A stretch of 32,000 nucleotides of DNA, from NCBI RefSeq assembly GCF_965208925.1, contig NZ_OZ242364.1, positions 3,212,928 to 3,244,927 on the forward strand, given 5' to 3'. A program made the position numbers and the translations under genes. Shown piece after piece: positions 486 through 26,507 of the stretch; positions within the stretch are counted from its first letter, which is position 1, and every line of letters starts with the position of its first letter. The stretch is from Candidatus Poriferisodalis sp. Lineage in GTDB: Bacteria; Actinomycetota; Acidimicrobiia; Acidimicrobiales; Poriferisodalaceae. The notes below the pieces were generated by a model. That model ran no database searches, was not told where the DNA came from, and was given only the letters and a program-made list of their open reading frames with translations.

Positions 486-601
486 GGGCTTCCTCCCTCA
501 GAACCGGTCGCCAGTGGCGAGCCACCTGTGGCAGCCCGCCCGCCGTGTGCGGTCGTACAGTCAGTCAACCAGCATCACCCATCGACTCAGCGAGGAATCA
601 C

Positions 602-2927: not shown

Positions 2928-2986
2928 TCTGATGATTACACCCAATCGGCGCACAGCTCGGCCCCCGGGCTCGACACGGGCTCAAC

Positions 2987-3073: not shown

Positions 3074-3083
3074 CCGACGCTGG

Positions 3084-10118: not shown

Positions 10119-11077
10119 TTGTACCGGATCCTCGGGTCGAGGCGCGCATAGAGCAGGTCGACCAGCAGGTTGACCATCACGAAGAGTCCGGAGATCACCA
10201 GGATCGTGCTCTGCACGACGGCGTACTCCCGCTTGCCGATGCCGTCGAGGACGAGCCTGCCGAGGCCGGGCATCGCGAAGATCTGTTCGACGATGACCGT
10301 GCCGCCGAGGAGGTAGCCGAACTGGATGCCGGTGATGGTGGCAATCGGTATGGACGCGTTGCGCAGGATGTGGACATATCGCACCCGGCGCGCCGAGATT
10401 CCCTTGCCCCGGGCGGTGCGCACGAACGGCTGAGTGGAGGTCTCCAGGAATGCCGATCGGGTGGTGCGCATGATCGTTCCGCTCAGGGCGAGCCCGAGCG
10501 TGATGGCGGGGAACATCATCTGCTGGACATTGAGCCAGGGGTCTTCCCACGGGGCCGCGTACCCCCGAGCGTTCGGGAAGTAGTCGAACCAGGAAGCGAA
10601 CAGCGTGACTGCAAAGGTGCCGATCACGAAGTTCGGAATCCCTAGGCCCAAGAGCCCGAAGACTTGGATGCCGGCGTCGCTGCGGGTCCCGGCCCTGGCA
10701 CCCGACAGGACACCCAGCGGGACACCGATCACCAGGCCGACAAGGATCGAGGCAAGGGCGAGCTCCACCGTGACCGGCAGGGCGTCACGGATCTGTGAGG
10801 CCACGCTGGTGCCGGAGCGCACGGAGAAGCCGAGATTCCCGGTGACCACGCTGCCCAGCCAGGAAAAGAACTGCTGGTAGGCGGGCTGATCAACGCCGTA
10901 GTAGCTGCGCAGCGACTCGATCTGCCGGTCGGTGAGAACGCCCGTCTCCGTGCCGAACGTCGAGGTGATCTCGTCGCCTGGCAGCAGCCGCAGCACAACG
11001 AACACCAGCACTGCCACGCCCGCGAGGGTGAGCACAGAGGCAACGAGTCGCACGAGCGCGTATCGCCAAGGCATCAC
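10115..11077 (-). CDS. ABC transporter permease (DppB/OppB-like)
   Basis: 320 aa. The N-terminus MPWRYALVRLVASVLTLAGVAVLVFVVLRLLPGD is typical of the family, as is the EAA-type region FVRTARGKGISARRVRYVHILRNA. The start is the GTG at 11077 or the ATG at 11074. Confidence 0.85.
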   Translation of the reverse strand: MMPWRYALVRLVASVLTLAGVAVLVFVVLRLLPGDEITSTFGTETGVLTDRQIESLRSYYGVDQPAYQQFFSWLGSVVTGNLGFSVRSGTSVASQIRDALPVTVELALASILVGLVIGVPLGVLSGARAGTRSDAGIQVFGLLGLGIPNFVIGTFAVTLFASWFDYFPNARGYAAPWEDPWLNVQQMMFPAITLGLALSGTIMRTTRSAFLETSTQPFVRTARGKGISARRVRYVHILRNASIPIATITGIQFGYLLGGTVIVEQIFAMPGLGRLVLDGIGKREYAVVQSTILVISGLFVMVNLLVDLLYARLDPRIRYK

Positions 11078-11120
11078 GAGACCAGCCAGTCATCTAGTCG
11101 GCACTCTGGATAGCACCACG

Positions 11121-11154
11121 CCGGTCTGATCGCCCGGATAGGCGATCAGACCGG
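11121..11154 (-). promoter_or_regulatory. Perfect 14-bp stem / 6-nt loop hairpin in the gap between the SBP and permease genes
   Basis: CCGGTCTGATCGCC (11121-11134), cggata, GGCGATCAGACCGG (11141-11154). I checked that the arms are exact reverse complements. It lies 16 nt downstream of the SBP stop, and no U-tract follows it on the transcribed strand. Confidence 0.6.
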
Positions 11155-11169
11155 CGCTGGCCGGAGGTG

Positions 11170-12858
11170 TCATTCGACGAGCGACGCCTCTCGCAGGAAC
11201 TGGAGGGAGCCGGTGGGCATGGGCGTGAAGTTGTCCACGCCATTGAGCATCCGGTACTCGAAGCCGTTGTAGATCCAGATCCACGGCGACGCCTCCTGCA
11301 GCGCTGCGGAGAACTCTGCGTAGATGCGGACCCGGGCGGACTGGTCAGTCTCGACCCGTCCGGCAGCCATCAGCTCGTCGAGGATGTCCGAAGAGTAGGA
11401 GGCGATCGGGTTGAGGTTGCCGTCTGATGTCCAGTAGCGGACATACATCTGGTGCGGGTCGATCTTTCCGCTGTTGAGGGCGACCGCAGCGTCGAAGTCC
11501 GCTGCCAACCACCGTTCGACATAGACGTCGGTCTCGAGCACCTCGAGGTCCAGTGCGATGCCGACCTCGCCGAGCTGGGCCTGGACCACTTGAGCCTCAT
11601 CGACAGCCGAGGCGTAGAAGATCGGGACGATGACGTTGAGCTCGAATCCGGCGCCCTGTCCGGCTGCATCGAGCAGTCGTCGAGCCTCAGCGACGTCCTG
11701 CTGACCGCCGCATGGCAGCCCATCGGGCGGGGACTGGTACGCCGGGATGGTGATCGGACCCGTGACGGCACCCTCGCCGAGCGCCGCCGAGTCGATGACC
11801 TCTTGACGGTTGATCGCGCACGAAATGGCGTGCCGCACGGACTGATCGGCCAACGGCCCTCGGTTCGAGTTCATCATCAGGGCGTGGTACGCGAGTGCGG
11901 GGGTGCGAAGCACTTCCACGTCGCCTCCGGCCTGCACGGCCACGAGCGGATCGGTGATGACAGCGACGTTGACTTCGCCCACATCGACTGCCGCCAGGAG
12001 CGAGGCTTCATCGGGCAGCACTCGAATCTCGATTCCTCCGACTTGCGGCGCGCCTCGCCAATGGTCGAGGTTGGCCGTGAGCGTCAGGGATTCGCCCTGC
12101 TGCCATTCGCCCCAGACGAACGGCCCGGTGCCGTCGGGTGACGTGTCGACGGTGCCGGTCGCGATCGCGTCCGCCGACATCATCGCCGCGTTCAGATCAG
12201 CGAGCGACGCCAGGATCGGGGCATCGGCCTGCGACAGGTTCAGGACGACCGTTGACGCGTCGGGTGTGTCCACCGAAGCGATCGATGCGATGTTCGCCCG
12301 AGTGACCGCGCCCGTCTCCTCGTCGAGGATCCGGTTCAACGAGGCGGCAGCATCGCCGGAGTCGAACGAATCGCCGCCGTGGAACATCACGCCCTCGCGC
12401 AGATGCAGCGTGAGGGTGCGGCCGTCGGCGGAGAACTCCCAGCTCTCGGCGAGGCCGGGGCCGACCGCAAGGTCCGCGCCGAGGCTCAGCAGTGTGTCGT
12501 AGACGAGCTCGAGAGCTTGCACCGACTGGAACGCCGTCGCCCGATGCGGATCGAGAACATCTATGTCCGCAGCTCGGCCGACCACGATGGTTCCAGTCGG
12601 CGGGGCAGGGCTGTCATCGGTCTCGGCTTCGTCGCCGGCGTCACCGGCGTCGTCAGCGGCGGCGTCACTGTCCCCGGCGTCGGGGTCGTCTCCAGGGTCG
12701 TCGGCCGCGGCATCCGGCGAGTCATCGGCCTGTTCCGTCGGAGCAGCCGTGTCATCAGCGGCCTGTTCGTCTGCATCGTCGCCACATGCGGAGACGAACA
12801 ACGCGAGTGCCGCGAACAGGGCGACCATCCTCGTCAACCAACGTGCTTTTTCGCTCAT
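11170..12858 (-). CDS. ABC transporter substrate-binding lipoprotein, family 5 (DppA/OppA-like)
   Basis: 562 aa. A signal peptide with lipobox VSAC (Cys25) is followed by a ~60-aa Asp/Ala/Pro-rich linker and a family-5 SBP body (...IVVGRAADIDVLDPHRATAFQSVQALELVYDTLL...). A strong SD (GGAGGGAG) sits upstream of the ATG at 12858. Confidence 0.85.
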   Translation of the reverse strand: MSEKARWLTRMVALFAALALFVSACGDDADEQAADDTAAPTEQADDSPDAAADDPGDDPDAGDSDAAADDAGDAGDEAETDDSPAPPTGTIVVGRAADIDVLDPHRATAFQSVQALELVYDTLLSLGADLAVGPGLAESWEFSADGRTLTLHLREGVMFHGGDSFDSGDAAASLNRILDEETGAVTRANIASIASVDTPDASTVVLNLSQADAPILASLADLNAAMMSADAIATGTVDTSPDGTGPFVWGEWQQGESLTLTANLDHWRGAPQVGGIEIRVLPDEASLLAAVDVGEVNVAVITDPLVAVQAGGDVEVLRTPALAYHALMMNSNRGPLADQSVRHAISCAINRQEVIDSAALGEGAVTGPITIPAYQSPPDGLPCGGQQDVAEARRLLDAAGQGAGFELNVIVPIFYASAVDEAQVVQAQLGEVGIALDLEVLETDVYVERWLAADFDAAVALNSGKIDPHQMYVRYWTSDGNLNPIASYSSDILDELMAAGRVETDQSARVRIYAEFSAALQEASPWIWIYNGFEYRMLNGVDNFTPMPTGSLQFLREASLVE

Positions 12859-12877
12859 GTGGGACTCCCTCCAATAG

Positions 12878-12933
12878 TCTGGTCTGGACCTTTCAGCGGT
12901 GATCTAGACCATTGCATATTGGCATAGACCAAT
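12878..12933. promoter_or_regulatory. Three dre-like (DasR/NagR-type) operator sites spaced 20 bp apart in the divergent promoter region
   Basis: Compared with the published Streptomyces dre consensus A(G/C)TGGTCTAGACCA(G/C)T. Site 1, 12878-12893, TCTGGTCTGGACCTTT, matches 12/16. Site 2, 12898-12913, GGTGATCTAGACCATT, matches 13/16. Site 3, 12918-12933, ATTGGCATAGACCAAT, matches 12/16. The sites lie between the SBP operon and the GntR/HutC gene. Confidence 0.6.
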
Positions 12934-12970
12934 CTCAGTGTCAACATTGGGAGCGGAGGAACGCCTGCAC

Positions 12971-13684
12971 ATGACCGACACACAGCGACTGCCGAAGTAC
13001 TACCGGGTCAAAGAAGTGATCATGGCCGAGATCGACGGCCTCCAGCCCGGCGCGCCCCTGCCCGACGAACGGACGCTCGCCGCCTCATTCGAGACCTCCC
13101 GCACCACCATCCGACAAGCCCTCCAGGAACTTTCCCGGGAAGGGCGCATCATGCGACGTCAGGGCCACGGCACCTTTGTGGCGGAGCCAAAGCTCACACT
13201 GCCGCTGCGCCTGTCCTCCCATACCGAGGACATGCACGAGCTCGGCATGGAGCCGAGCTCACGGGTTCTCTCCGTGACCGACGAGTGCGCCGACGACACG
13301 ATCGGCGACGCGCTCGGCATTGATGTCGGCGACCCCATCACCGTCATCTCGCGCGTGCGCCTCGCCGACGGCGTTCCGCTGGCCCTCGAGATCAACCACC
13401 TCTCCCAGACTCGGTTCCCCGGTATCGCCCGGCTCATCAATGACCACGTCTCGCTCTACGAGATCCTCGTCGACGACTATTCCGTGACCCCCCACCACGC
13501 GCTCGAGACGATCGAGTCCGCGCCGGCCACTCCGGAGGAAGCCAAGCTGCTCGAGACCGAGATCGGCACGCCCATGATGCTGATGACCCGCCAGTCCTTC
13601 GAATCAGACGGCGATGCGTTCGAGTACGTCCGATCGGTGTACCGCGGCGACCGCTACCGCTTCGCCACTCAGCTCACCACCTGA
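12971..13684 (+). CDS. GntR-family transcriptional regulator, HutC/DasR/NagR subfamily (wHTH plus UTRA effector domain)
   Basis: ORF 12938..13684. The likely start is the ATG at 12971 (MTDTQRLPKYYRVKEVI...), with GGAGGA upstream. The HTH region is LPDERTLAASFETSRTTIRQALQELSREGRIMRRQGHGTFVA. The C-terminal half is UTRA-like. Confidence 0.85.
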   Translation: MTDTQRLPKYYRVKEVIMAEIDGLQPGAPLPDERTLAASFETSRTTIRQALQELSREGRIMRRQGHGTFVAEPKLTLPLRLSSHTEDMHELGMEPSSRVLSVTDECADDTIGDALGIDVGDPITVISRVRLADGVPLALEINHLSQTRFPGIARLINDHVSLYEILVDDYSVTPHHALETIESAPATPEEAKLLETEIGTPMMLMTRQSFESDGDAFEYVRSVYRGDRYRFATQLTT

Positions 13685-13700
13685 CTTCGGCGGCCGATCG

Positions 13701-14531: not shown

Positions 14532-14597
14532 CGCCGCACAATGGCGGCGGCGAGGGTGGAACAGTCGACAGCCGAACGATGTGGCGCCTGCCGCCCG

Positions 14598-15284
14598 CTA
14601 CTCGGCGACGCGGACGGTGAACTCGAGTCCTCCGGTGAACGGCAGGGTCATCGTGCGGAGCTTGTTGGCGGGGTCGTTGAGGAACTCGAAGTACGGCTGG
14701 TAGCCCTCGGCGGACGAGATGGTGTTGTCGGTGACGACGACCGCGCCGGGGCGCAGGGCGGGGGCGACCAGTTCGAGAGCGTCGAGAGCGACATGCCAGA
14801 TGTCGACGAGCAGGAAGTCGATCGGTCCCCCGCAGTCGACCAGCGTCTCGCGCAGATCGCCCTCCCGCAGCTCGATCCAGCTCGCCAGGCCTGCCTCTTC
14901 GAAGTTGGCCCGGGCGACGGCGGCCTTGTCCGGCTCGTACTCGGTAGCGATCACCACGCCGTCGTCATGACCGTTGTCCCGCACGGCGGCGGCCAGGTAC
15001 AGGGTGGACACCCCGTGGGACGTCCCGGCCTCGACCACACGCCGAGCGCCCAGAGCGCGGCAGACCTGATAGCAGAACATCGCCTTGTCGCGATCGAGCG
15101 CAACGAGCTTGTCGGCGAGGTACTGGCGCATGTCGTCGTCGAAGCCGCGCTGGGTCCGATCTCGGCCGCTCTCCCGCCGCGCCTCGGAGAAGAACGCCGA
15201 CGTCTCGGCGGCCTGCGCGTCGCTCTCGGCGTGCAGCCGATCGAGCAGTGCCTCGAGCGCAGGATCGTGCAGGGGCGATGTCAT
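14598..15284 (-). CDS. Class I SAM-dependent O-methyltransferase (family 3, caffeoyl-CoA OMT-like)
   Basis: 228 aa. The SAM-binding region is RRVVEAGTSHGVSTLYLAAA, followed by VIATEYEPDKAAVARANFEEAGLASWIELREGD and IDFLLVDIW, as in family-3 O-methyltransferases. Confidence 0.8.
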   Translation of the reverse strand: MTSPLHDPALEALLDRLHAESDAQAAETSAFFSEARRESGRDRTQRGFDDDMRQYLADKLVALDRDKAMFCYQVCRALGARRVVEAGTSHGVSTLYLAAAVRDNGHDDGVVIATEYEPDKAAVARANFEEAGLASWIELREGDLRETLVDCGGPIDFLLVDIWHVALDALELVAPALRPGAVVVTDNTISSAEGYQPYFEFLNDPANKLRTMTLPFTGGLEFTVRVAE

Positions 15285-15372
15285 ACATGTCCTCTCTTGA
15301 TTACCGAGTGTCGTCGTCCGAGTTCGGGGGCTTCAGGCCAACGGTCACAGACTCAGGACGGCTCGCAGTCCG

Positions 15373-15612
15373 TCATCGATGGCATCGACCAGTGCCCGAG
15401 GCCATCCGCCCTCCGATCGCCGCGGCGTCTTCGCGAGTCAGTCCGCCGGGCGCGGCCAATGCTGCATCGGCCACGAGCTGATCGGCGAATGACATGGTCG
15501 ACTGGACTGCATGGCGCCGGAGCTGCCCGGTGACCCACCTCGAGAACGGCACGTCCAGGCTGTCGATGATCGGCACCACGTCGTCCGGCACGCTGATGAT
15601 CCTGTTCGGCAC
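15373..15612 (-). CDS. Hypothetical small protein (possibly ribbon-helix-helix/antitoxin-like)
   Basis: 79 codons with a GTG start, 25 nt downstream of the PP2C stop, and high third-position GC. The N-terminus (M)PNRIISVPDDVVPIIDSLDVPFSRWVTGQLRRH loosely resembles CopG/RHH antitoxins. I saw no clear SD, so this call is weak. Confidence 0.3.
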   Translation of the reverse strand: MPNRIISVPDDVVPIIDSLDVPFSRWVTGQLRRHAVQSTMSFADQLVADAALAAPGGLTREDAAAIGGRMASGTGRCHR

Positions 15613-15637
15613 GTACGTTTTCTATCTGCGTACGATC

Positions 15638-16444
15638 TCAGCCCGGCGCGAGACGGGCGACCGCGATGGTGGTGTTGTCGATGAGGCCGGCGAAGCGGGC
15701 GGTGTCCATCAGCGTGTCGGCAACTGTGTCGGCCGATTCCCGCCGTTCGGGCGGCAGAGCGAAGCCGAGGCTCAGATCGTCTGGATCGTCGCCGAACCAG
15801 CCCCGATCATGCGTCATCAATACCGGGTCGAACAGCCCGTCGGTGGCCAGCACGACCAGCAGGCCCTGATCGCTGATCCAGCCTTGGACACGGGCTGCCG
15901 GCACGTCCTCGCTGAGGTTCTCGAGGTGGCCCGCCGGCAGCTCGTAGGTGCTGCCCGTGCTGGCCCGGAACATGCCGACGCCACGGCTGACGAATCCCAT
16001 CGGCCCGCCATGAGGCGTGCTGTGCCAACCCGGCCCGGCGGCGATCGGCACCAAGAATGCCATCGAGTCCCCTGCCCACGACACCAGCAGGCGGCCTTCG
16101 GGTGTCCACGCGGCAACCACCAGCGTCGTGAGCGCGATCACCGACGACACGCCCTCGTCGGCGCTGCGCATCTCGGGATGCAAGCCCCACGCGACCGCGT
16201 TCGCTGCGTCGAACGCTGCGGCCATATCTGCCTGGCTGGTAATGCGTTCGGGCAGCGCATCCACTGCGGCCTGGGCAGCCTCGTCCCCGAACGGATGACC
16301 GCCCAGCCCATCGGCCACCGCCATCACCCACGAGCCGTCAGCGTTGACGACCGTCCGGACGCGGTCCTCCTGCCGATCCCGCGGCCCAACCTCAGCCCGC
16401 GTCGTCAACTCTGCCGTGATGCTCACTGCAGAACTCTCGGACAT
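15638..16444 (-). CDS. PP2C-family Ser/Thr protein phosphatase
   Basis: ORF 15638..16684. The likely start is the ATG at 16444 (MSESSAVSITAELTTRAEVGPRDRQEDR...), preceded by GGGAG. PP2C motifs seen: RQEDR, MAVADGLGGH, VLATDGLFD and DNTTIAVARL. Confidence 0.8.
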   Translation of the reverse strand: MSESSAVSITAELTTRAEVGPRDRQEDRVRTVVNADGSWVMAVADGLGGHPFGDEAAQAAVDALPERITSQADMAAAFDAANAVAWGLHPEMRSADEGVSSVIALTTLVVAAWTPEGRLLVSWAGDSMAFLVPIAAGPGWHSTPHGGPMGFVSRGVGMFRASTGSTYELPAGHLENLSEDVPAARVQGWISDQGLLVVLATDGLFDPVLMTHDRGWFGDDPDDLSLGFALPPERRESADTVADTLMDTARFAGLIDNTTIAVARLAPG

Positions 16445-16541
16445 CCCACCACTCCCATCTGCATCCTCAATCCGACCGTACCGAACCAGCACAGCGTGGC
16501 CCGTGTCGTTTTCGCGGACGCGGCTGCAGGAAGACGCCACC

Positions 16542-16937
16542 ATGGAGCCAGCGTCGCCTTTGACGGCGAAGGACGTCTGGGGCTTGTCATCGGGCTTTCT
16601 CGTGCGGTTCTTAGACTTGAGTGCAGTGGCAACGACGCGCTTTTCCCGACCTGTCGAGATACCGGACGATCTCGCGGAGCACACGCTCGCGCCTGAACGC
16701 GGGCGTGTGAAGCTCCCGAGCCGCCTCGCATGGAGCGGTCAGGGCGAGTTCGATCTCGACGACCGTCGCGACCGCATGTACGTGTATCAATTGGTGATGA
16801 CCGAAGGCACGTGCGACGACGTACGCCGCTATATCGACCTCAAGCTGCTCGTGGAGATGTGGTCCGACATGTGGCTCTCACCGCACGTGCGACAACGCTG
16901 GGACGACTGGTTGCGCGACCGCGAGCTGATTGCCTAG
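16542..16937 (+). CDS. Small antitoxin-position protein upstream of the AbiEii-type toxin (no recognisable HTH)
   Basis: The ATG at 16542 has GGAAGA 10 nt upstream. The stop (TAG, 16935-16937) overlaps the TTG start of the toxin gene. The Trp-rich C-terminus is ...DRMYVYQLVMTEGTCDDVRRYIDLKLLVEMWSDMWLSPHVRQRWDDWL. I associate this only from memory with partners of DUF1814 toxins. The start is uncertain because the 5' part of ORF 16344..16937 overlaps the PP2C gene. Confidence 0.55.
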   Translation: MEPASPLTAKDVWGLSSGFLVRFLDLSAVATTRFSRPVEIPDDLAEHTLAPERGRVKLPSRLAWSGQGEFDLDDRRDRMYVYQLVMTEGTCDDVRRYIDLKLLVEMWSDMWLSPHVRQRWDDWLRDRELIA

Positions 16938-17601
16938 CACTGTGCTGACGTCGCTGCAGCAACGTGTGCGCAGCATCATCGCGGGGTTGCCCGAGGCCGA
17001 CACAGTGGCTCTGGCTGGCGGCGGTGCGCTCATTGTTCACGGCATCGTCGACCGGGCCACTACGGACCTGGATTTCTTCTCGCCCACTGACGTTGATGTA
17101 CGCATTTTCGCTGAGGCGACGTGCTCCGCTCTCGAGCAAGAAGGTCTCGGCGTCGCCATGGAGAGATCGAGTGCTGAATTCGTGCGTCTCCTCGTCAGAG
17201 ACGGCAACGACGAGCTGAGTATCGACATCGGAATCTCCGGCCGTGCGTTTCCTCCAGTGTCCACCGCGCAGGGTCGGGTCCTCGCTGCTGAAGACCTCGC
17301 CGGTGACAAACTGCTGGCTCTCTTCGGTCGTGCCGAGCCACGCGACTTCATCGACGTCTACGCGCTCTCCGCCCGATTCGACGTCATAGACCTTTGCGAC
17401 TTCGCCGCCGACAAGGATCAAGGTTTCAGCCTCGAACAGCTGCGCGACGCCCTCAGCGTGTTCGACCACCATCCACGTCAAGCGTTCCCGATCACCGATC
17501 CAGAATTCGAGACACTGCGCGACTGGGTTCATTCCTGGCGCGGCCAACTGCCGCGCTCAAGCCAATCGTCACGCAATGATCGCGGAAGCACATCGGAGTA
17601 G
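16930..17601 (+). CDS. Nucleotidyltransferase AbiEii/AbiGii (DUF1814, MenT-like) toxin family protein
   Basis: 223 aa. The NTase core is ALAGGGALIVHGIVDRATTDLDFF (hGG...DxD), followed by LSIDIG and the family-typical GDKLLALFGRAEPRDFIDVYAL. The start is the TTG at 16930 or the GTG at 16942. Confidence 0.8.
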   Translation: MPSTVLTSLQQRVRSIIAGLPEADTVALAGGGALIVHGIVDRATTDLDFFSPTDVDVRIFAEATCSALEQEGLGVAMERSSAEFVRLLVRDGNDELSIDIGISGRAFPPVSTAQGRVLAAEDLAGDKLLALFGRAEPRDFIDVYALSARFDVIDLCDFAADKDQGFSLEQLRDALSVFDHHPRQAFPITDPEFETLRDWVHSWRGQLPRSSQSSRNDRGSTSE

Positions 17602-17607
17602 TAGGAG

Positions 17608-18282
17608 ATGGCCGTCAAGTGTCCCGCCTGCCGGATCACCGACCAACGGGTCTGGCTGGGAATTGTCGAGACAACGCTCAACGAAATCTTGGACGAAGTG
17701 TCAGAGTCACCTCGTCTGGACACCGCCGGCAGCAGTATCTGGTTGGCCCGCTGTGCGCGGGCTGACTGCTCAACTCTGGCCTACTGGTTGCGAACCCCAT
17801 CGGAGCACTCATTCGACGGATGGTCAGATGAGCGGTTCGCCGCCTTCCACCGGGATATCCGTCAGGCACCGGATCAAGGCCTGAATGGCGAAGAAGTGGA
17901 TCTCTACCGGGAGGCTGCCGCGGTAGCTGGACTCTCGCCTCGTTCCGCCTGCGCGCTTCTCAGACTCCTCCTGGAGTCGCTGCTCAAGCGTCACCTTGCT
18001 GATGCCGGGCACTCGATTAACAACAAGACGCTGTTCAAGCTGATCGAGCTGGCTGAACAAGAGCTCGATCTTTCGTCACTACTCAAGAGCGGACTTAGTG
18101 CAATCCGGGTCCAAGGCAACGAGGCCTCGCACGACATCTATGGGATCAGCGCCGAGACGGCCGACGCCAATGTGAAATGGCTGTTCGTCGCGATCGATCA
18201 ACTAATCGACGATCTCTACGTCAAGCCCCAGGTCTGGGCAGAACTCGAGCAGCGGCCCAATCCGGAAGAAGAGCCGTTCTGA
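17608..18282 (+). CDS. DUF4145 domain protein with an N-terminal CxxC...Cx4C zinc-ribbon-like module
   Basis: 224 aa. Cys5/Cys8 (CPAC) and Cys49/Cys54 (CARADC) form the ribbon-like module. The C-terminal half, LYREAAAVAGLSPRSACALLRLLLESLLKRHL...LFKLIELAEQE...LSAIRVQGNEASHD, fits the DUF4145 pattern (Y.EA...lR..lE.ll......L...I..L......l..iR..GN.a.H). The ATG lies 6 nt after the toxin stop, and the GGAG SD is inside the toxin's last codons. Confidence 0.75.
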   Translation: MAVKCPACRITDQRVWLGIVETTLNEILDEVSESPRLDTAGSSIWLARCARADCSTLAYWLRTPSEHSFDGWSDERFAAFHRDIRQAPDQGLNGEEVDLYREAAAVAGLSPRSACALLRLLLESLLKRHLADAGHSINNKTLFKLIELAEQELDLSSLLKSGLSAIRVQGNEASHDIYGISAETADANVKWLFVAIDQLIDDLYVKPQVWAELEQRPNPEEEPF

Positions 18283-18397: not shown

Positions 18398-20395
18398 CTA
18401 CCAGCGGGAGCGGATGTACTCCAGTGCGTCCTTCGTGTTGTAGAGCCGCGTCGAATTGCCCATCCGCACGTAGAACTCGGCGTCGTCGCTCAGGTAGACC
18501 GGCTTCGGGCTCGGTCGGATGTCGAGCCTGCAGACGTCGCCTTCCGGGAACTCCTCGAATGTCACATCAATGAGGGTGGCCGTCGGCGACTTCCCGATCT
18601 CTCGGTCGAGCCGCGTGATCAGCCAGTTTTCGAAACCGTCCCGACCGTTGTTGCCCGTCGTTGAGTAGTCATCCGCCAATCCGGTCGGGTTCTGCCTGTC
18701 GTGCACGCCGATCAGCAGGACGCCCCCGCCAGCGTTCATGAATCCAGCGACGGACTTCAGGACGCTGTGCTCAAGCTTCTTGTCGGCCTTGCCGGTGTAG
18801 GGGTTGAAGCGCGCCGTCTGCTTGTATTCGACGGTCTTGCTCTCGCCTGCCTCGATCAGCTCTGCCGTCGAGCGGCGCTGCTCGTGCTCGACCTCAGCCA
18901 CATCGAGGTCGGGCTCGGTCTCAAGTTCATCCGGTTGCTCTGGAACCTCGACCCAGATCTCGCGCCCGGTGTCCTCTTCCAGGTACGAGAACGCCGTCTT
19001 GGCATAGTCGTGGAACGCCAGCTTCTTCAGCTGCTCCTTGACCCGGCGTCGACCCTCCATGGCGAACTCGAGGTACTCCCGCAGTTCACCGTGGCCCCAC
19101 TCACCGTGCGGATGCAGGATCTTCACCAAACCCGACACGGTCTTGCGCACAGCGCGCTCGTCTCGGGCCGACAGATGCGAGCCAAGCCCGAAGTCAGCGT
19201 CGATCGCCCGCACCTGGCTGCTCTTGCGGAGTTGGCGCATCGCCTCGGCGAAGTAGTCAGACACGAATCCGAAGTGATCAGTGAAGAGCCTCGCTTCGAG
19301 CTTCGGAGCTTCCCAGCCAGGCAGGGAGTAGTGCAGCCGATCAAGGAACGCCGGATCGATCATCTGCGGCGGAAGATCGGCGAAGAGGTGTGCCGTACGA
19401 ACCAGCTCTTCATGGGGCTTCGAGGTGTTCCCGATGAACACGACCGACGCCTCGGCCGGGATCTCTTCCTTGCCGCGAGCAAATGACCCGGACTCCATGA
19501 AGTCCTTCAGCATGTTGACGACGGTCGAATCCCCCATCTGGAGGCCGGCGACCTCATCGAAGGCGACGACGTCCCACGTGCCGAGCAGACCGACTCGGCC
19601 GCTCGACATGTTCACGAACAGCTGAGCGACGGTGACCTTGCCGCCTGATATGAGGATCGCGTTCGGATTGGACTCACGGTAAACGAAGGACTTCCCGGTA
19701 CCCCACGGCCCGAGCTCGATGAGGTTGTAGTTCCGTTCCACCATCGGGAGCAGGCGCGTGAGTGCCAGCAGCTTGCCGCGATGGTCGTACTCGGTTGGCT
19801 CGAGACCGATGGTCCGCACGACAAGGTCGAGCCAGTCGTCACGGCTGAACTCCCGCCTGGCATCGACATAGGCGGGGAGGTCGAAGGCAGCGACCTGGAT
19901 GGGCTTCAGTCCAGCGATGTAGAAGGGTGTCTTCTGCGCCTTGTCCTCTAGGTCGTTGTAGACGAGGTCGATCTGCGACCAGGCACCGCCGCCGAGGAGA
20001 CGCTCGTACTTGTAAACGGTCTCCTCAGGGATGTTGATGAACTTCGACCCGAAGTTCGCCAACGTCGCCCAGAACTTCTTGTCGGACTCAACGAAACGGA
20101 CATCGACCTTGTCGATCAGGCGGTGCTTGCCCTTCTTCTTCAGTTCAGCCTTCGCCTGCTCGGACTCGTCAGGTCGGATGAAGTTGTCGGCGAGCACCTG
20201 ATTGACGACGGTGAGGCCAGCCTCGATCTCGAACGGGTCGGATGAGGCGCAGTACTTGCCAAGGAGGAACTCGAGCACATAAACGGGCACTGACGCGCCG
20301 ACCTTGACCTGACGCACCAGATCTTTACGCACGACTCGGCCAGGGAAGAACCGGTTGGCTAGCTCGTCGAGGCGGTCGTGTTCGCGCTCCGTCAC
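18398..20395 (-). CDS. brxL: BrxL-family AAA+ ATPase with a C-terminal AlbA_2/Schlafen-type domain in place of the Lon-like domain
   Basis: 665 aa. The N-terminus LANRFFPGRVVRKDLVRQVKVGASVPVYVLEFLLGKYCASSD matches BrxL/TIGR02688 as I remember it. Walker A is GPWGTGKS (aa 229-236) and Walker B is VVAFDEV (aa 275-281). YLEFAMEGRRRVKEQLKK follows, then an acidic linker. Residues ~510-665 (AELIEAGESKTVEYKQ...LKSVAGFMNAGGGVLLIGVHD...FYVRMGNSTR) fit the AlbA_2 (PF04326) pattern. GTGA overlap with the pglZ stop. Confidence 0.85.
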   Translation of the reverse strand: MTEREHDRLDELANRFFPGRVVRKDLVRQVKVGASVPVYVLEFLLGKYCASSDPFEIEAGLTVVNQVLADNFIRPDESEQAKAELKKKGKHRLIDKVDVRFVESDKKFWATLANFGSKFINIPEETVYKYERLLGGGAWSQIDLVYNDLEDKAQKTPFYIAGLKPIQVAAFDLPAYVDARREFSRDDWLDLVVRTIGLEPTEYDHRGKLLALTRLLPMVERNYNLIELGPWGTGKSFVYRESNPNAILISGGKVTVAQLFVNMSSGRVGLLGTWDVVAFDEVAGLQMGDSTVVNMLKDFMESGSFARGKEEIPAEASVVFIGNTSKPHEELVRTAHLFADLPPQMIDPAFLDRLHYSLPGWEAPKLEARLFTDHFGFVSDYFAEAMRQLRKSSQVRAIDADFGLGSHLSARDERAVRKTVSGLVKILHPHGEWGHGELREYLEFAMEGRRRVKEQLKKLAFHDYAKTAFSYLEEDTGREIWVEVPEQPDELETEPDLDVAEVEHEQRRSTAELIEAGESKTVEYKQTARFNPYTGKADKKLEHSVLKSVAGFMNAGGGVLLIGVHDRQNPTGLADDYSTTGNNGRDGFENWLITRLDREIGKSPTATLIDVTFEEFPEGDVCRLDIRPSPKPVYLSDDAEFYVRMGNSTRLYNTKDALEYIRSRW

Positions 20396-22911
20396 AACTC
20401 TTCCTGGACCATCACGTGAGCCGCCACCTCGATATCAACAGCATCGCCGAGGCGAATTCCGGTCGAAGCATCGAGCACTTCGAGGATGGCCACAGAACCG
20501 GCGGTGAGATTCTCCGAGATTCGCATGGTGATCACCTGGCTCTTGTCCACTGCCGCGTCAATGGTGCCAGTGACCGGGTCGAAACCGTCGCCACCGACGA
20601 CTCGAGCGATGCGCTTTCCATTCTGCGAGAGGACGACCCGTACAGGGCTCTCACTGGTGAACAAGTCGCCGGTCATCTGAATCGTGACGGCGACGACACC
20701 GGTGGTGATTCGTCCGCCCGCCACAGACAACTCGATCTCATACTTCGGCTCGGCTGTCGGCTCGTCCGACACCACCGTGATAACGGGCACGACGAGTTCT
20801 TGCGGAGACAGTCCGCCGTGGAAGAACTGCAGACCACCGCTGGCCACAAACACGCCGAGCCCCCGCGGGGCGATGATGTCGAGACCGCCGCCGATACCGA
20901 AGTCGGACAGCGGCACCTTCACGGTCGAGTCCGTCGCGGTGCCGCCGGTGCCGATCCAAGCCCGTCGATGCGGCTCTCCCCTGCCGGTTGGCGGCTTGTC
21001 GACCCGCAGCTTCTCCCCTAGCTCGCGGACGGCGAGGAATCCGTGGTCGGCTGTGAGAACGACGCGCCGGATGCCGGCGTGGAGCAAACGAGCGACTGCG
21101 GTTTGGAGCACATCGAGCGTGGAATCGAACGAGCCCCAGCTTGCAGCGAGCTGGTCGGTCTCGCCGTCTGCGTCGATCTCGGTCGACCTAACGAGCACGA
21201 GGGACGCTCCCTCGATGTGCTTCTTGAGTTCGCGATTGGTGTACTGCGCCAGTTTGTCGAGCGGTATATCGGCCACCTTGCCGTGAACCTTCTCGAACCG
21301 ATTGACTCGGTCAGAAACCGTTCGGACGGTCCTTCCCTGGATATGCACCGCGAGGCGCGAATCCGCATTCAGATCAATGTCGAATCGTTCCTCCGCACCA
21401 GGCGTGACTGCGGCCATGCCTATCGGCGTGATCGTCGGAGCAGCAGCTGCCACTGCGCGCACGTCGACGGTCGCATTCAGTCGCCCAAGCCTGGTAGCGA
21501 GGTCCCGGCCGAGTTCGTACCGCAGAGCATCTACGAGCACATATGCCGTGCGAGTCCGGCCGCGCACCTCTGCATGGTGAATGCGGCGCTGCTGCTCGTG
21601 ATCGGGGACGTTCGCATCGCTGGAAATCGCCTCCGCCGTCCGCCGCAGCACTTGGTCAAGCCACTGTTCGTAGCGTTGGCGGCCGAGCCGGAACGCATCG
21701 TCCAACTCATGCAGATCGGTGCCGGCGCTGACTCTCAGTAGCTCCATGCGGCGGTAGGCGCTGTCGACCTCCCAGCCGGTCGACGAGTACCAGTCGACAA
21801 CGGATGCCAACGACGCGGCCGCGGGCAGTTCGCTCTCCAGAGCAGCGTTCAGACCAGCGATGGCGGCAACTGCACGCCACCGAGCATGAAAGTCGTGACC
21901 CTCCAGCCGGTTCGGTTGCGCCCACCAGCTCGACTGCAAGCGCTCCTCGGCCAGTTCGCTCGCAGCATGCCAATCGCGTTCGCCGAGAAGGCGTCTGGCT
22001 TCAAGCAGCGCAAGCTCCTCAATGCCTGGGGTGAGATCAATGCTGCTCATCCCCTCCCGCCAAGTCATGACAGCGGCTGTGTGCAACGCGCTGTCAGCCT
22101 CGTTGGCGAGTTCAACGATGGCGGCCGAGCTCTCGGACAGTGCCCGGAGGAGGCCCCACGTGTCGTTGACGGTTTTGCGCTGTGGCGCCGTGACCGACGC
22201 GAATGCCCCGGTGAAATCGTCGGGCAGCATCCCCGTCGCCTCGTGGAGCACTGTGAGTACGAAGTGGCGAAACACTTCTGAGCGGAGAGCTGCCCCGTTG
22301 GCGACGTCGGCCTTGGCACCGGTCGACTTCGCAAAAAAGGCATGGGCGGCATCGAGGAGCACAGGTTCCGTCAGCTGCTCGTCGTACGAGCCCGAGAGCA
22401 GAGCCCGGGCGATAGCTGCTGTTCCTGACTCACCCACCAGCGTCATCAGTCGCGCATCCGCCTCGCTGGCACCGGCGTCCAGTGCCGCCTCCACCTCCGC
22501 CAGGGTTTGGCACTGCTTGCCCAACTCCTCAAGCCGCTGATCGGTCAGCTGGCCCCGGAGCGAATTGCGGATGACGGTGGGAAGCAAGCTGCGATGCGAG
22601 AATCCGACCGACCGCAACTCCTCAAGTGGGTCGTTCTCGGGCGCCGGAGCTGAAACGTAAACAAGCAGGTTGGGTGATGTCGCTCCAGCGAGTTGCGCTT
22701 CGATGTCCCGTCGGAGTGCAAACCAGCTTCCATCGAACGTAGCGACGGATACGCCTTCCGGAGCGATCTCACCGGCGACCGCGCCATAGGACTGCTCTCG
22801 GTCATCCCAGATAACGACGCCGTACCGCTGGAGCTTGCTAGCAAGCTCCCTTGCCAAGTGGTCTCGTACTGGCGTCACAACTGATCCGCGTACTTCGAGA
22901 CCGTCGACCAT
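20392..22911 (-). CDS. pglZ: BREX alkaline-phosphatase-superfamily protein PglZ
   Basis: 839 aa. The N-terminal region is ...YGVVIWDDREQSY. PglZ-domain motifs are YVLVDALRYELGRDL and VLTADHGF. The start is the ATG at 22911 (37-nt overlap with pglX) or the GTG at 22878 (GTGA overlap). Confidence 0.9.
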   Translation of the reverse strand: MVDGLEVRGSVVTPVRDHLARELASKLQRYGVVIWDDREQSYGAVAGEIAPEGVSVATFDGSWFALRRDIEAQLAGATSPNLLVYVSAPAPENDPLEELRSVGFSHRSLLPTVIRNSLRGQLTDQRLEELGKQCQTLAEVEAALDAGASEADARLMTLVGESGTAAIARALLSGSYDEQLTEPVLLDAAHAFFAKSTGAKADVANGAALRSEVFRHFVLTVLHEATGMLPDDFTGAFASVTAPQRKTVNDTWGLLRALSESSAAIVELANEADSALHTAAVMTWREGMSSIDLTPGIEELALLEARRLLGERDWHAASELAEERLQSSWWAQPNRLEGHDFHARWRAVAAIAGLNAALESELPAAASLASVVDWYSSTGWEVDSAYRRMELLRVSAGTDLHELDDAFRLGRQRYEQWLDQVLRRTAEAISSDANVPDHEQQRRIHHAEVRGRTRTAYVLVDALRYELGRDLATRLGRLNATVDVRAVAAAAPTITPIGMAAVTPGAEERFDIDLNADSRLAVHIQGRTVRTVSDRVNRFEKVHGKVADIPLDKLAQYTNRELKKHIEGASLVLVRSTEIDADGETDQLAASWGSFDSTLDVLQTAVARLLHAGIRRVVLTADHGFLAVRELGEKLRVDKPPTGRGEPHRRAWIGTGGTATDSTVKVPLSDFGIGGGLDIIAPRGLGVFVASGGLQFFHGGLSPQELVVPVITVVSDEPTAEPKYEIELSVAGGRITTGVVAVTIQMTGDLFTSESPVRVVLSQNGKRIARVVGGDGFDPVTGTIDAAVDKSQVITMRISENLTAGSVAILEVLDASTGIRLGDAVDIEVAAHVMVQEEL

Positions 22912-25900
22912 GCGTACTTGCCTTGCCTCAGCTCAGCGCGGTACTTCGCAGCGTCCTTCCATGCCGGAAACAGCGACGCCAACGGCGCGGCGTTAAGCAC
23001 CGCCCCATCGTCGAGGTCAGGCTCCCATCCAAAGTTGGCAATCCGATCCGCTTCGTCCCTGAAGGCAACAAGCTCGACGGCGAGCTTCTGCTCAGCGCCA
23101 AGCTCTTTCGAGACAGCAGCGATAGGTCGGCCAGCACCACCGTCCTCGTACTCCCGCTGCAGCGTGGCGATCCGTCGTTCCGCCAATCGTTGGCGCTGCT
23201 CAGCCTCTCGAACGGTGGCGAACAGCATCTCGCGAGATAGGCGAGGCATGTACAGCCAGACACCCCATGCCTTCGAAGGAACCTGGAGCTGCCAGTAGAT
23301 CGGAGCCTTACGACTGCTCATCGAGTACTGGACGAGGTGTTGAGAGAAGAACTTCGTGCGGATGTAGCGGCTCAGCTGCATCGGTGCGCCGACGAGCGAG
23401 GCGCTGAGATCCTCTACCGAACAGCCTGTGATGTACTCGAGCGCCAACGCTACGCGACGGCTTACGTCGCGGTCTTCGCCTGGATCATCCGGCATGACAG
23501 CATCGGAAGCAACCTCGATTGGGTAACTCGCACGTGCCGCTCGAAGTGCCCCTGGAGGTAGGGGGCGGCGCGGCTCCCAGGGGTGAGTCGAACTTGTCAC
23601 ATTCGAGGGATCTCGGCCGATTTCGATATCCCATCGACCGAAAGCACAACCGACGGCGTAGGAGACCAGATCAGCGAGCTGCTTCTCGCCCGTCGGTGGC
23701 GCTCGATAAGGTCCAACGTGGCCCTGCGCCAATTCGTGGACACGCTCCTCCAAGTCCTCGTCCAGCCACCAAACTGGCGGGACGCTTCCTTGGTGCCCTC
23801 CTTGTGAGTAGCTCGTCGGCAGGGCTCCGAATTCCTCGCTCAGCATCCGGCGATCGGATTCATCGAACCCCATGGCGTCCAGCACCGCTTCATCCACAGC
23901 CGCTAGCTCGGCGAACGGCGTCGCGGCCGGCTCGACCCGACCGTAGGGAGCGAGGAACCGACCTGTCGTCTCGTCCCAAGTGTCATTGGCGGCCTTCCAG
24001 TCGACGATCCTCGCAACCGCTGCGGCGACTGCACCGCTGTCCCAAAATGCCGGAACCTCCGGAAGCCTCTTGACAGCACCAACTTCCCAAGATCCGAACG
24101 TCGTCAAGTAGCCCAGGAACATCTGTCCGGCTCGGGAGAGCAGATAACCGAGGGCGCATAGAAGCGCCTCTTCACCGTCACCATCAATAAACACACCACT
24201 TCCCTTGTCGGCAAAGACCGCTCCATCCGGCATCACTCGGGGGTTGAAGCCCTTCACCGTTCGTCGTGGCCAGGTAAGCCCGCGCCGAAAGTAGTACTGC
24301 GTGTTCTGGGCCCGGCTGCCGCTGCAAGCGCGGATGCGCTCCCCGTCGTTTTCCCAGTCCACGAGGAGGTGGATGTCCCCCCAAAAGGGGCTGTATGCGC
24401 CACCCTTCGCGAACGGCACCCAGCGGCAACCATGTCGAGTGTCACTTGTCGAGAATCCGACTCTTTCGGGGTTGACCTCCCATGCTGCTCGTACGAACCG
24501 AAAATCATCACCTGTTGCCAGTCCCTGCCTCACCTCCGCGCATGCTGCGAACGCAGGCCGAGAGCGGAACTGATCCCTCATCGCTTGGCTCATCCAATAC
24601 GAGACGGGCCAGCCCGGCACTGCTCCAAACTCGGAAAGCTCGACCACGTATACGCGGTGGTCATCGTTGCCGACGCGGTGTGCGCCGCTCGTTTCCCTCA
24701 GAGCCTTGCTTCGATCCACCTCAGAGTTAACGCGCAGGAACACGCCTTCACCCTCCGGCTCTGCCCGAGCCAGCACGTACGCCGCAGCCTCGACCCGAGC
24801 GTCTTCCATCACCCGTTCACCGAGGTCAGCGAGGACGACGAAGCGATTCGCAAGCAGCACCTCCCTTCGCCACTTTTCGAAGGTCCTGGTAATCAGACCT
24901 CCACGTGACGTGATCGCTGCGCATGTGCCGACCCGCTCCTCAGCGAGTTCAAGCCCGCGTCCGACAAACGCCGCGAGAAGGTTGTAGTCCTTATTCGGAA
25001 TCCACGGGTAGGCCGCCTTCAGGTAAGTCTTGGACGCAAAGACAGGCTCGCCGAAGGGTGGATTCATCAAACACGCCGTGTACCGGCGGCTCATGGCTTC
25101 GATGAAGCGAACGGCGTCGTGTGCTTCGGCAGCGAAGAGTCTCTGTGCCACGGTCGACGTCGTCTGGTCAGCAATCGTCTCCAGCGTCTCCAAGACAACA
25201 GACTCGACGTTCACGGCATTACCGCCAGACCACCCTTCGGAAAGAGTTCCCTCAAGGTGGCCGGTCCCGAACACATCACGCGCCTCCCGGTCGAGCCTCT
25301 CTTCGATCTTGAGCAGCGGACCGAGCACCGGAGCCATGATGAGTTCCTCGGCTATCGCTTGCACGACCCGGCCGACGTGCGGCGGCAGGGTGGCGATTAG
25401 TTCGTCTGCCTCTGGAGTGTCTGGCAGTGAGCGGGCGCAGATCACGTTCGGTTTCGGCAGTGGCGTGCGGCAATGACGCCGTGCACGAAGGATCACAGCG
25501 GCCTGCGCAATCTGGGTAGCGCGAGGATCGATGTCGATGCCCCACAGCGACCGGACGATGTCAGGCGCCGCGTCTCCAGGTTCGACGCCAGCGTGCCGCC
25601 AAGCGGCCTCCAGCACGTCATAAGCACCGAGCAGGAAGTGACCGGACCCGCAAGCCGGGTCGAGCGCGCTCACCTCGCGGAGGTCGATCGGCTCCGCGGC
25701 GGGCTCAGGCACCTCGACGAGCATCGGCAATTCGCCCGCAAGCGCCGGGAACGACGCGGCGAGGTGCACGCCGAGGCCGTTCTGAACAAGGAACTCAACG
25801 ACGTACGAGGGCGTGAAGAACTGGTTCCGTACTGCAAGTTCCCTTGAGTTTCGGGGAGCTGAAGACTGCCGCATCTCCTTTCGTTCATCGGACGAGTTGA

Positions 25901-26507
25901 AGAACTGGTAGGACCAACCAAGCGCATCGGGTGCCGACCAGATCGACTCGTCGACAGCGACGAAAAGCTCGATCAATTCCGAGAACGCTGCCGTCGACGG
26001 CTCAAGTTCGAGCAGTGGGTTGCGAGGGTCGAAGAGCGCGGGGACATCGGCCGAGAGTTCATCAGCACAGATCCGCACGAGGAGGCGGAAGCGTTCCCAT
26101 TCCTCATTCGCGCTGGCGGGCGCTATCTCGGCGAAGTCGCGGAATCCTTGCGAGACGAGTCCGTTGCCGATCGCTTCGGGCAGCACGCCGAGTCCTTCCG
26201 CCACCCGCAGGGTGACAAGCCGGTTGACGTGAGTGAAGGCGGCCTCGCGGATGAGACGCTCGACTGCCGAGGATTCTGTCTCGCCTTCGCTGCGCAAGTA
26301 AGCGATGACGTCGAGTAGGTCAAGTCTGACCGCCGCCTCAGACGCATCGAGCGGCAGGGCCTCGGCATCTTCGATCCGTCCGTCGCTGCGGTGGATACCG
26401 AATTCGCCTTCCAACGTCGATGCCAAGTCGATCTCAAGTAGCGACCGCGCCTTCTGGATGAGGTTGCCAAGAGCTGTCCGCTGAGCACCGTCCAGTGCCA
26501 CGGTCAC
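22875..26507 (-). CDS. pglX: BREX adenine-specific DNA methyltransferase PglX
   Basis: 1210 aa. The SAM-binding motif I is LDPACGSGHFLLGAYD and the catalytic motif IV is CLMNPPFG. The length and the N-terminal region (...FTHVNRLVTLRVAEGLGVLPE...) match PglX. GTG start in a GTGA overlap with the brxC stop. Confidence 0.9.
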   Translation of the reverse strand: MTVALDGAQRTALGNLIQKARSLLEIDLASTLEGEFGIHRSDGRIEDAEALPLDASEAAVRLDLLDVIAYLRSEGETESSAVERLIREAAFTHVNRLVTLRVAEGLGVLPEAIGNGLVSQGFRDFAEIAPASANEEWERFRLLVRICADELSADVPALFDPRNPLLELEPSTAAFSELIELFVAVDESIWSAPDALGWSYQFFNSSDERKEMRQSSAPRNSRELAVRNQFFTPSYVVEFLVQNGLGVHLAASFPALAGELPMLVEVPEPAAEPIDLREVSALDPACGSGHFLLGAYDVLEAAWRHAGVEPGDAAPDIVRSLWGIDIDPRATQIAQAAVILRARRHCRTPLPKPNVICARSLPDTPEADELIATLPPHVGRVVQAIAEELIMAPVLGPLLKIEERLDREARDVFGTGHLEGTLSEGWSGGNAVNVESVVLETLETIADQTTSTVAQRLFAAEAHDAVRFIEAMSRRYTACLMNPPFGEPVFASKTYLKAAYPWIPNKDYNLLAAFVGRGLELAEERVGTCAAITSRGGLITRTFEKWRREVLLANRFVVLADLGERVMEDARVEAAAYVLARAEPEGEGVFLRVNSEVDRSKALRETSGAHRVGNDDHRVYVVELSEFGAVPGWPVSYWMSQAMRDQFRSRPAFAACAEVRQGLATGDDFRFVRAAWEVNPERVGFSTSDTRHGCRWVPFAKGGAYSPFWGDIHLLVDWENDGERIRACSGSRAQNTQYYFRRGLTWPRRTVKGFNPRVMPDGAVFADKGSGVFIDGDGEEALLCALGYLLSRAGQMFLGYLTTFGSWEVGAVKRLPEVPAFWDSGAVAAAVARIVDWKAANDTWDETTGRFLAPYGRVEPAATPFAELAAVDEAVLDAMGFDESDRRMLSEEFGALPTSYSQGGHQGSVPPVWWLDEDLEERVHELAQGHVGPYRAPPTGEKQLADLVSYAVGCAFGRWDIEIGRDPSNVTSSTHPWEPRRPLPPGALRAARASYPIEVASDAVMPDDPGEDRDVSRRVALALEYITGCSVEDLSASLVGAPMQLSRYIRTKFFSQHLVQYSMSSRKAPIYWQLQVPSKAWGVWLYMPRLSREMLFATVREAEQRQRLAERRIATLQREYEDGGAGRPIAAVSKELGAEQKLAVELVAFRDEADRIANFGWEPDLDDGAVLNAAPLASLFPAWKDAAKYRAELRQGKYAWSTVSKYADQL

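Follow-up and report, generated by a model that had tools for sequence, protein, structure and literature searches.

A Schlafen domain in place of the Lon-like tail of BrxL at the end of a type 1 BREX operon

We analysed a 32,000-nucleotide stretch of the Candidatus Poriferisodalis sp. contig NZ_OZ242364.1 (the window) and found that the terminal gene of its bacteriophage exclusion (BREX) operon encodes a BrxL protein that ends in a Schlafen (AlbA_2) domain instead of a Lon-protease-like one. The gene, here called brxL-SLFN, lies at positions 18398-20395 on the minus strand, begins with GTG and encodes 665 amino acids (aa), as given by the list of open reading frames (ORFs) and by its matches to TIGR02653 and PADLOC models. 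Its start codon overlaps the stop codon (TGA) of pglZ in a GTGA tetranucleotide read directly from the sequence (20392-20395, minus strand), an arrangement of translational coupling, and the type 1 BREX operon that ends with this gene is complete. With a probability of roughly 0.55, we read its product as the restriction-arm BrxL of this system, in which a single-lobe Schlafen endonuclease, an RNase that would be gated by assembly, takes the place of the Lon-like C-terminal domain (CTD) from the interdomain hinge onwards.

The N-terminal region and the AAA+ core of the protein are those of a canonical BrxL, with the Walker motifs intact. BrxL_N, the DNA-binding N-terminal region, covers aa 16-146 (19958-20350, minus strand; PF20442, E 9.8e-42), and the MCM-like AAA+ ATPase, which is 80-94% identical within the close family, covers aa 158-469 (18989-19924, minus strand; PF13337, E 3.1e-122). 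Walker A, GPWGTGKS, was verified at aa 229-236 (19688-19711, minus strand) and Walker B, VVAFDEV, at aa 276-282 (19550-19570, minus strand). Residues G229, P230, T233, G234 and K235 of the former and F279, D280 and E281 of the latter are near-invariant in 52 BrxL representatives. The protein passed the cut-offs of TIGR02653 (663.4 bits against 628.25) and TIGR02688 (538.8 against 329.3), and it matched the PADLOC BrxL model PDLC02506 with an E value of 5e-208. The alignment was confined to model positions 3-483 of 675 in TIGR02653 and covered positions 3-490 of 680 in PDLC02506. An initial annotation, made from the letters alone, had read the first ~485 residues as BrxL; the Pfam, TIGR02653 and PADLOC models, which cover aa ~1-490, bear this out, and the ORF and all the strings quoted in it are present at verified positions.

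Acinetobacter BrxL (8EMC) aligned collinearly with brxL-SLFN (residues 7-487 against 7-486, E 4e-149), and the alignment ended at VPEQ/VKEQ, which is where the protein had been said to diverge from BrxL. The junction (18902-18955, minus strand), placed by this alignment, consists of WVEVPEQ (aa 481-487), the end of the BrxL homology, and an acidic hypervariable linker (aa 488-498). The acidic sequence reads PDELETEPDLDVAEVEHEQ over aa 488-506, and the linker has a mean identity of 31% in the close family. The predicted local distance difference test (pLDDT) score was below 50 for residues 486-496, in a full-length AlphaFold2 (AF2) model that was itself poor. In Acinetobacter BrxL, the ATPase is connected to the CTD by a hinge linker, residues 469-497 (PMC10164562). 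Since the BrxL homology ends at residue 487, the breakpoint falls within this interdomain hinge. An EcoSal review calls the C-terminal Lon-protease-like domain 'diagnostic' of BrxL, and brxL-SLFN departs from that definition: the Pfam scan of the 665-aa protein gave no Lon_C match, the 8EMC homology stops at 487, and the tail has a Schlafen fold. Within the close family the mean identity of this tail is 57%, compared with 85% for the ATPase. In the window, a test for recent acquisition found no compositional anomaly in the Schlafen segment (GC 62.2%, GC at third codon positions 86.5%), so this lineage has carried the fusion for a long time. Scanning the sequence at the 3' end of brxL for terminators and promoters yielded nothing of note.

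The tail is a Schlafen (AlbA_2) fold with the full catalytic signature E518, E523, K525 and D566. The module, two N-terminal helices followed by an alpha/beta core, spans aa 499-665 (18401-18901, minus strand) as delimited by AF2, Foldseek and PF04326. SLFN_AlbA_2 (PF04326) matched aa 518-651 with an E value of 4.3e-15 (56.7 bits, cut-off 25.3), as the initial annotation had predicted along with the absence of a Lon match. Together with the BrxL matches, this lies well outside what chance could produce. An alignment-based AF2 model of aa 491-665 reached a mean pLDDT of 93.7 and a predicted template modelling score of 0.90. When this model was compared with the PDB by Foldseek, a check that had been proposed with the domain call, all 33 significant matches were AlbA_2/Schlafen folds, with no Lon protease and no phospholipase D-like (PLD) protein among them. 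The matches included DIP2311 (3lmm), SLFN11, rSlfn13, SLFN5, SLFN14, SLFN12, the SAMD9 tRNase domain and 2kyy, and the Foldseek probability was 1.00 for 3lmm, 2kyy, the SAMD9 tRNase domain and SLFN11/13/14/5/12. A sequence profile of the tail likewise matched the catalytic C-lobe of SLFN11, SLFN14, SLFN12 and rSlfn13 in the PDB.

Alignment invariance marks two parts of the putative active site. The first is the nuclease motif E518-x4-E523-x-K525 within ESKTVEYK (aa 518-525; 18821-18844, minus strand), which lines up with ESQSIEFK in SLFN11 and with ESTHVEFK in SLFN14. The second is the Schlafen-box-like VAGFMNA (aa 549-555) together with GGGVLLIGVHD ending at D566 (18698-18751, minus strand); in SLFN11 and SLFN14, the residue opposite D566 (of IGVHD) is the second D in the sequence IGVDDK. 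We take E518, E523 and D566 to be the equivalents of SLFN11 E209, E214 and D252, using literature numbering, the profile alignments and the SLFN14-E211A PDB entry as a ruler. Neither an alignment of 57 tail sequences nor one of 40 full-length sequences showed any variation at E518, E523, K525 and D566, or at F552, N554, G558 and G563. The four catalytic positions are also unchanged in nine Schlafen domains from divergent BrxLs, domains whose identity is otherwise only 28-57%. Compared with the box SAFAN, the V-A-G-F-M-N-A found here keeps the invariant F552 and N554, and the S and the second A are replaced. In recent papers on prokaryotic Schlafens, the nuclease is defined by three features: E-x4-(E/D)-x-K, a Schlafen box and an acidic triad.

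The BrxL-SLFN architecture is widespread and occurs in at least three phyla. All three domains were found in 120/120 best database matches (69-92% identity, many independent assemblies), which carry the names "protease Lon-related BREX system protein BrxL" or "ATP-dependent Lon protease"; named members belong to Actinomycetota, Gammaproteobacteria (Ca. Pseudothioglobus) and Verrucomicrobiota. To survey the tails, we searched with aa 1-490 only, took one representative per 50%-identity cluster, and ran a Pfam scan on the query and the 51 representatives that were full-length. Among these 52, the C-terminal domain was Lon_C in 21, SLFN_AlbA_2 in nine, MIT_C (PLD-like) in eight, a protein kinase in four, HEPN in two, and TIR and PIN in one each. 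Tail classes were assigned by hidden Markov models and jackhmmer; single-linkage clustering of the tails by BLAST merged nearly all of them through bridging two-domain proteins and was dropped. Individual domain scans revealed composite proteins in which Lon_C is followed by Schlafen (P0171; locus L009, 10001-12577), PLD by Schlafen (P0174; L011, 6023-8599), Lon_C by PIN (P0155, from an ANME-2 archaeon) and Lon_C by HEPN (P0162). The scans also found an N-terminal HEPN domain (P0183) and a TIR tail (P0227); the Ser/Thr-kinase tails are those of P0163, P0168, P0189 and P0212.

A neighbour-joining tree of the shared BrxL core, built from 468 columns with 200 bootstraps, showed the Schlafen-tailed proteins to be polyphyletic, with 0% bootstrap for their monophyly. 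The query clade was sister to a Lon-tailed BrxL (96% bootstrap), and other Schlafen-tailed members sat inside clades of PLD, kinase and Lon forms (92-100% support). Core and tail identities are decoupled: P0160 shares 41% of its core and 57% of its tail with P0165, compared with 63% and 37% with P0174. This indicates that the Schlafen module has been repeatedly acquired or exchanged among BrxLs. The initial annotation had proposed a domain-swapped BrxL and a survey of homologues for tail diversity and context. The swap stands, with Lon_C absent and Schlafen present, and the survey found the diversity it was aimed at; the implied rarity does not hold, given the 120/120 best matches and the repeated exchange.

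Canonical BrxL proteins form ATP-dependent hexamers or heptamers on double-stranded DNA (dsDNA) and are needed for restriction, not for methylation. In canonical BrxL of Acinetobacter sp. 394 (PDB 8EMC/8EMH), two rings are joined tail-to-tail by their CTDs, assembly depends on ATP and DNA, and dsDNA is bound in the pore (PMC10164562); the Lon-like CTD is catalytically dead and structural or regulatory (PMC10164562, PMC12839542). brxL-SLFN has BrxL_N, the MCM-like AAA+ domain, the Walker motifs and the last place in a type 1 BREX operon in common with canonical BrxL (PMC10164562). Unlike it, brxL-SLFN lacks the ~180-aa Lon-like CTD, and its acidic linker leads into a Schlafen/AlbA_2 domain whose nuclease motif is complete.

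The tail also resembles those of prokaryotic Schlafen proteins with known activity. According to the reports on pSlfn5 (Taboada 2025), Cash (PMC13462974) and SLFN-pAgo (10.64898/2026.05.29.728809), these are single-lobe AlbA_2 domains with the same signature, fused to a sensor or oligomerising partner in an anti-phage system, and all three cleave tRNA under the control of oligomerisation. Binding of cyclic tetra-adenylate (cA4) turns Cash dodecamers into filaments (PMC13462974), and ATP-driven tetramerisation of SLFN-pAgo pairs two single lobes into the horseshoe of mammalian Schlafens (10.64898/2026.05.29.728809). brxL-SLFN joins the domain to the BrxL AAA+ ring, the three systems to an Ig-like domain, Csx15 or a GHKL-Argonaute; the Schlafen domain is C-terminal in BrxL and N-terminal in Cash and SLFN-pAgo, and the activity and substrate of brxL-SLFN are predictions. 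In the nuclease core of mammalian SLFN11/13/14, fold and catalytic residues align at the C-lobe, but brxL-SLFN has one lobe only (no N-lobe), no SWAVDL/helicase region and an identity of ~15-18%. Because pSlfn5, Cash and SLFN-pAgo all cleave tRNA, the tail is most likely an active metal-dependent endonuclease, an RNase or tRNase.

By analogy with these systems, the Schlafen tail would use divalent metal ions to cleave RNA internally, most probably tRNA, and would be inactive as long as its lobe is unpaired. The ATP- and DNA-dependent assembly of the BrxL ring could pair two such lobes, from adjacent subunits or from the two rings at the site of the Lon-like tail-to-tail contacts. The paired lobes would rebuild the two-lobed active architecture, and cleavage would be switched on. 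It is plausible that ring assembly on unmodified DNA licenses Schlafen cleavage in this manner, and loading of BrxL on unmodified phage DNA would then lead to translation shutdown, adding an effector arm to BREX.

Several observations weigh against the assembly-gated RNase. The canonical CTD is distant from the DNA and monomeric by itself (PMC10164562), so the pairing of Schlafen lobes in brxL-SLFN is a conjecture. The full-length AF2 model had a mean pLDDT of 60, with the ATPase core below 50, probably owing to a shallow, low-diversity alignment, and the tail could not be placed relative to the ring. Some Schlafen/AlbA_2 domains bind DNA instead of cutting RNA; one from SAMD9, for example, was crystallised with DNA (7ksp). 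Furthermore, the two genomic contexts of free-standing relatives that were examined (L013 and L014) held no defence island, and an antiviral function of this Schlafen subfamily is not established.

The conserved catalytic residues would also fit a DNA-directed nuclease on the BrxL ring, which would cut or nick phage dsDNA or unwound single strands in the manner of BrxL-PLD and so equip BREX to degrade DNA directly. We regard this as unlikely. It draws on the dsDNA held in the BrxL pore (PMC10164562), on the PLD tail, a proposed DNase, at the same position (PMC12065111, PMC12839542), and on the ability of AlbA_2 domains to bind DNA: the SAMD9 structure 7ksp, a DNA-binding domain crystallised with DNA, is among the Foldseek matches, and titles of SLFN5 PDB entries read 'DNA/RNA binding protein' and 'ssRNA cleaving and DNA binding'. 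However, the substrate of the characterised prokaryotic Schlafens considered here is tRNA, and the canonical CTD lies far from the DNA in the pore (PMC10164562). PLD and Schlafen domains also occur together in P0174, which argues for non-redundant activities.

We give a slimmer chance to a non-catalytic tail, which would stand in for the Lon-like domain in ring-ring association or ATPase regulation by binding nucleic acids or by dimerising. The catalytically dead canonical CTD is a precedent for such a role; several mammalian Schlafens lack the catalytic residues, and relatives of the tail are named 'AlbA family DNA-binding domain-containing protein' at NCBI. Yet the acidic triad and the lysine are invariant across polyphyletic lineages in a domain that otherwise falls to ~30% identity, and P0171 keeps its Lon-like tail with the Schlafen domain added behind it, so the latter is not merely a structural replacement. 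A fusion produced by frameshift, misassembly or wrongly joined genes found no support (some relatives in the databases do show frameshifts or truncation) and is refuted by the continuous 665-aa frame, by the same architecture and length in the 120/120 best matches from many independent assemblies, by the presence of the architecture in multi-Mb contigs and by the related loci.

The composite proteins with Lon_C or PLD ahead of Schlafen point to Schlafen as an added output rather than a structural substitute alone, and an effector role is backed by the PIN, HEPN, TIR and kinase domains also fused to BrxL. We tentatively extend the assembly-gated RNase to a wider possibility, that BrxL may be an effector-coupling hub, a DNA-licensed ring with an exchangeable C-terminal output socket, in which pairing of the Schlafen lobes would create a tRNase and result in translation shut-off or abortive infection. 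The modules of such a socket would be the inert Lon-like dimeriser, the PLD nuclease, the Schlafen RNase, and the kinase, TIR, HEPN and PIN domains.

Replacement of the BrxL CTD is already known as a principle from the PLD/'HKD' tail (PMC12065111, PMC12839542). A BREX survey of 2026 describes BrxL tails as inactive LonP, 'HKD-endoDNase' (1030/2913 taxa) or none (type 4) (PMC12839542), and its 'HKD' tail goes back to Li et al. 2025, who described an MIT_C PLD fold with an HDR motif (PMC12065111). With this MIT_C tail published in 2025-26, the list of BREX terminal genes in the initial annotation is outdated. BrxL-PLD resembles brxL-SLFN in that the Lon-like tail is swapped at the same junction for a putative nuclease (PMC12065111); it differs in having a PLD domain with an HDR/HRD motif, where brxL-SLFN has Schlafen with E-x4-E-x-K. 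We considered whether the 'HKD/HRD' tail might be the same domain under another name and rejected this: the published variant is MIT_C/PLD, our protein had no MIT_C match and no PLD fold match, and P0174 carries PLD and Schlafen in tandem. The letters 'HDR' within GVHDRQ are coincidental, as H565 and R567 are not conserved.

Schlafen RNases appear in the BREX survey only as separate neighbour genes with a histidine-kinase-like domain and a winged helix-turn-helix (wHTH) (PMC12839542). Such BREX-adjacent genes have been proposed as a backup abortive-infection effector (PMC12839542; Cluster 2 of PMC13462974). brxL-SLFN is like these stand-alone Schlafen-(HisK-like ATPase)-wHTH genes (PMC12839542, PMC13462974) in associating a Schlafen nuclease with BREX; it is unlike them in that they are described as having their own ATPase and HTH, and here Schlafen is covalently part of core BrxL. 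The supplements of PMC12839542 contain no Schlafen/AlbA term. The pSlfn preprint counts 55 fusion architectures, with no BrxL in its main text or the table parts examined, and neither WP_271768597 nor a BrxL fusion class was found in the parts of its catalogue examined. The Cash paper (PMC13462974) states that Schlafen homologues with ATPase and DNA-binding domains are 'tightly associated' with BREX; the phrase most naturally refers to neighbouring genes, and a BrxL fusion may be depicted in that paper. Apart from this ambiguous sentence, we could not find a description of a BrxL-Schlafen fusion in the BREX and prokaryotic Schlafen literature searched, and the Schlafen-tailed BrxL is apparently new, as had been supposed at first. 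The composite, HEPN, TIR and kinase forms are likewise not mentioned in the BREX and Schlafen papers examined.

The catalytically dead tail of canonical BrxL offers no handle on the output of the protein. A widespread natural BrxL with a recognisable, mutable nuclease site would provide a read-out of whether DNA loading switches on an enzyme and which substrate it acts on. The polyphyletic Schlafen tails, the composites and the kinase, TIR, HEPN and PIN fusions cast the C-terminal end of BrxL in a new light, as a modular socket for effectors, a picture that extends the published Lon/HKD dichotomy. They also link BREX to the prokaryotic Schlafen tRNase effectors, which share ancestry with human SLFN11-type antiviral proteins, and the "Lon-related" names given by annotation pipelines conceal a predicted nuclease. 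If BrxL were indeed an effector hub, BREX would stop phages partly through translation shut-off or abortive infection, which is not currently credited to core BREX proteins.

Searches with the Schlafen tail alone gave a view of its relatives. A genome-collection scan found eight close loci, a word-indexed database search with the single tail found 32 matches, and a profile search reached further, to 2451 matches, in which the nearest free-standing relatives were AlbA_2-only proteins of ~270 aa. The closest relatives of the module outside BrxL are short (~255-300 aa). P0135, P0138, P0139, P0146 and P0147 join it to hydrophobic, apparently transmembrane N-termini, P0143, P0144 and P0394 to a response-regulator receiver domain, and P0145 to bPH_2. 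These relatives belong to a large 'AlbA family DNA-binding' group.

The BREX operon, all on the minus strand, is ordered brxE-family gene, brxA, brxB, brxC, pglX, pglZ, brxL, and contains all type 1 core genes. It is headed by the brxE-family gene (31282-31827; NF033447, 76.8 bits, cut-off 40), followed by brxA (30518-31285; PF08849, E 1.4e-16), brxB (29959-30588; PF08747, E 1.2e-19), brxC (26504-29962; NF033441, 594.6 bits, cut-off 400), pglX, the BREX-1 adenine methyltransferase (22875-26507; NF033452, 545.9 bits, cut-off 500), and pglZ (20392-22911; PF08665, PADLOC PglZ E 1.7e-76). The window PglZ gave its top score to the BREX-6 PglZ model, below the cut-off. The operon thus has a mixed flavour, type 1 by PglX and BrxL, yet with a brxE-family first gene, which is consistent with the view of type 6 BREX as a type 1 subtype (PMC12839542).

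The overlap with pglZ is real, and the proposed operon membership of brxL-SLFN is both real and conserved in relatives. The order BrxC-PglX-PglZ-BrxL(SLFN) was kept in 5/5 related loci long enough to show the upstream genes, all from metagenome-assembled genomes (MAGs), four of Acidimicrobiia type and one labelled Enterobacteriaceae. BrxL directly follows pglZ in L001, L003, L005, L006, L008 and L009-L011, and the divergent Schlafen-tailed BrxLs of other lineages also lie directly after pglZ. L011 also has a GmrSD (type IV restriction) gene, immediately upstream of its pglZ. Across L001-L008, identity to the window was 86-96% in the BrxL N-terminal and ATPase part and 63-89% in the Schlafen tail; it was 51-82% for PglZ, 53-63% for PglX and 53-84% for BrxC, all below the BrxL motor part. 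In L002 (9111-10525, an Acidimicrobiaceae MAG), only a truncated and frameshifted brxL-SLFN remnant starting at ~aa 194 was found, with no BrxC, PglX or PglZ detectable in the 10 kb upstream of it; this is apparently a copy that has decayed or been moved, and its Schlafen part (P0121) carries the NCBI annotation 'ATP-binding protein'. L001 (CAYYHT010000065.1) and L007 (JANQPS010001037.1) have a BrxL core (aa 1-490) 95-96% identical to that of the window, and their MAGs are labelled 'uncultured Enterobacteriaceae' and 'Thermoanaerobaculia', respectively. Because all other close relatives are Acidimicrobiia-type, these labels are probably binning or label errors.

A second defence gene abuts the BREX operon. 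It encodes a 224-aa DUF4145 protein (17608-18282, plus strand; Pfam E 1.6e-8), is convergent with brxL and matches PADLOC PD-T7-4, a single-gene defence system (E 4.9e-18). Next to it, an AbiEii-type nucleotidyltransferase toxin is encoded at 16930-17601 (plus strand; Pfam E 2e-12, PADLOC AbiEii matches weak), overlapped by a 197-aa ORF without a family match (16344-16937, plus strand) at the position expected for an AbiEi antitoxin. The ORFs at 14541-15533 and 15494-16696 had no match in Pfam or PADLOC. Positions 1-13700 hold housekeeping genes, among them an enolase-superfamily (MR_MLE) enzyme, an FAD monooxygenase, SIS-domain proteins, the anhydro-MurNAc kinase AnmK, an amidohydrolase, an Opp/Dpp-type ABC transporter and a GntR/UTRA regulator. 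This gene set suggests a cell-wall amino-sugar recycling cluster, and the defence island starts after it.

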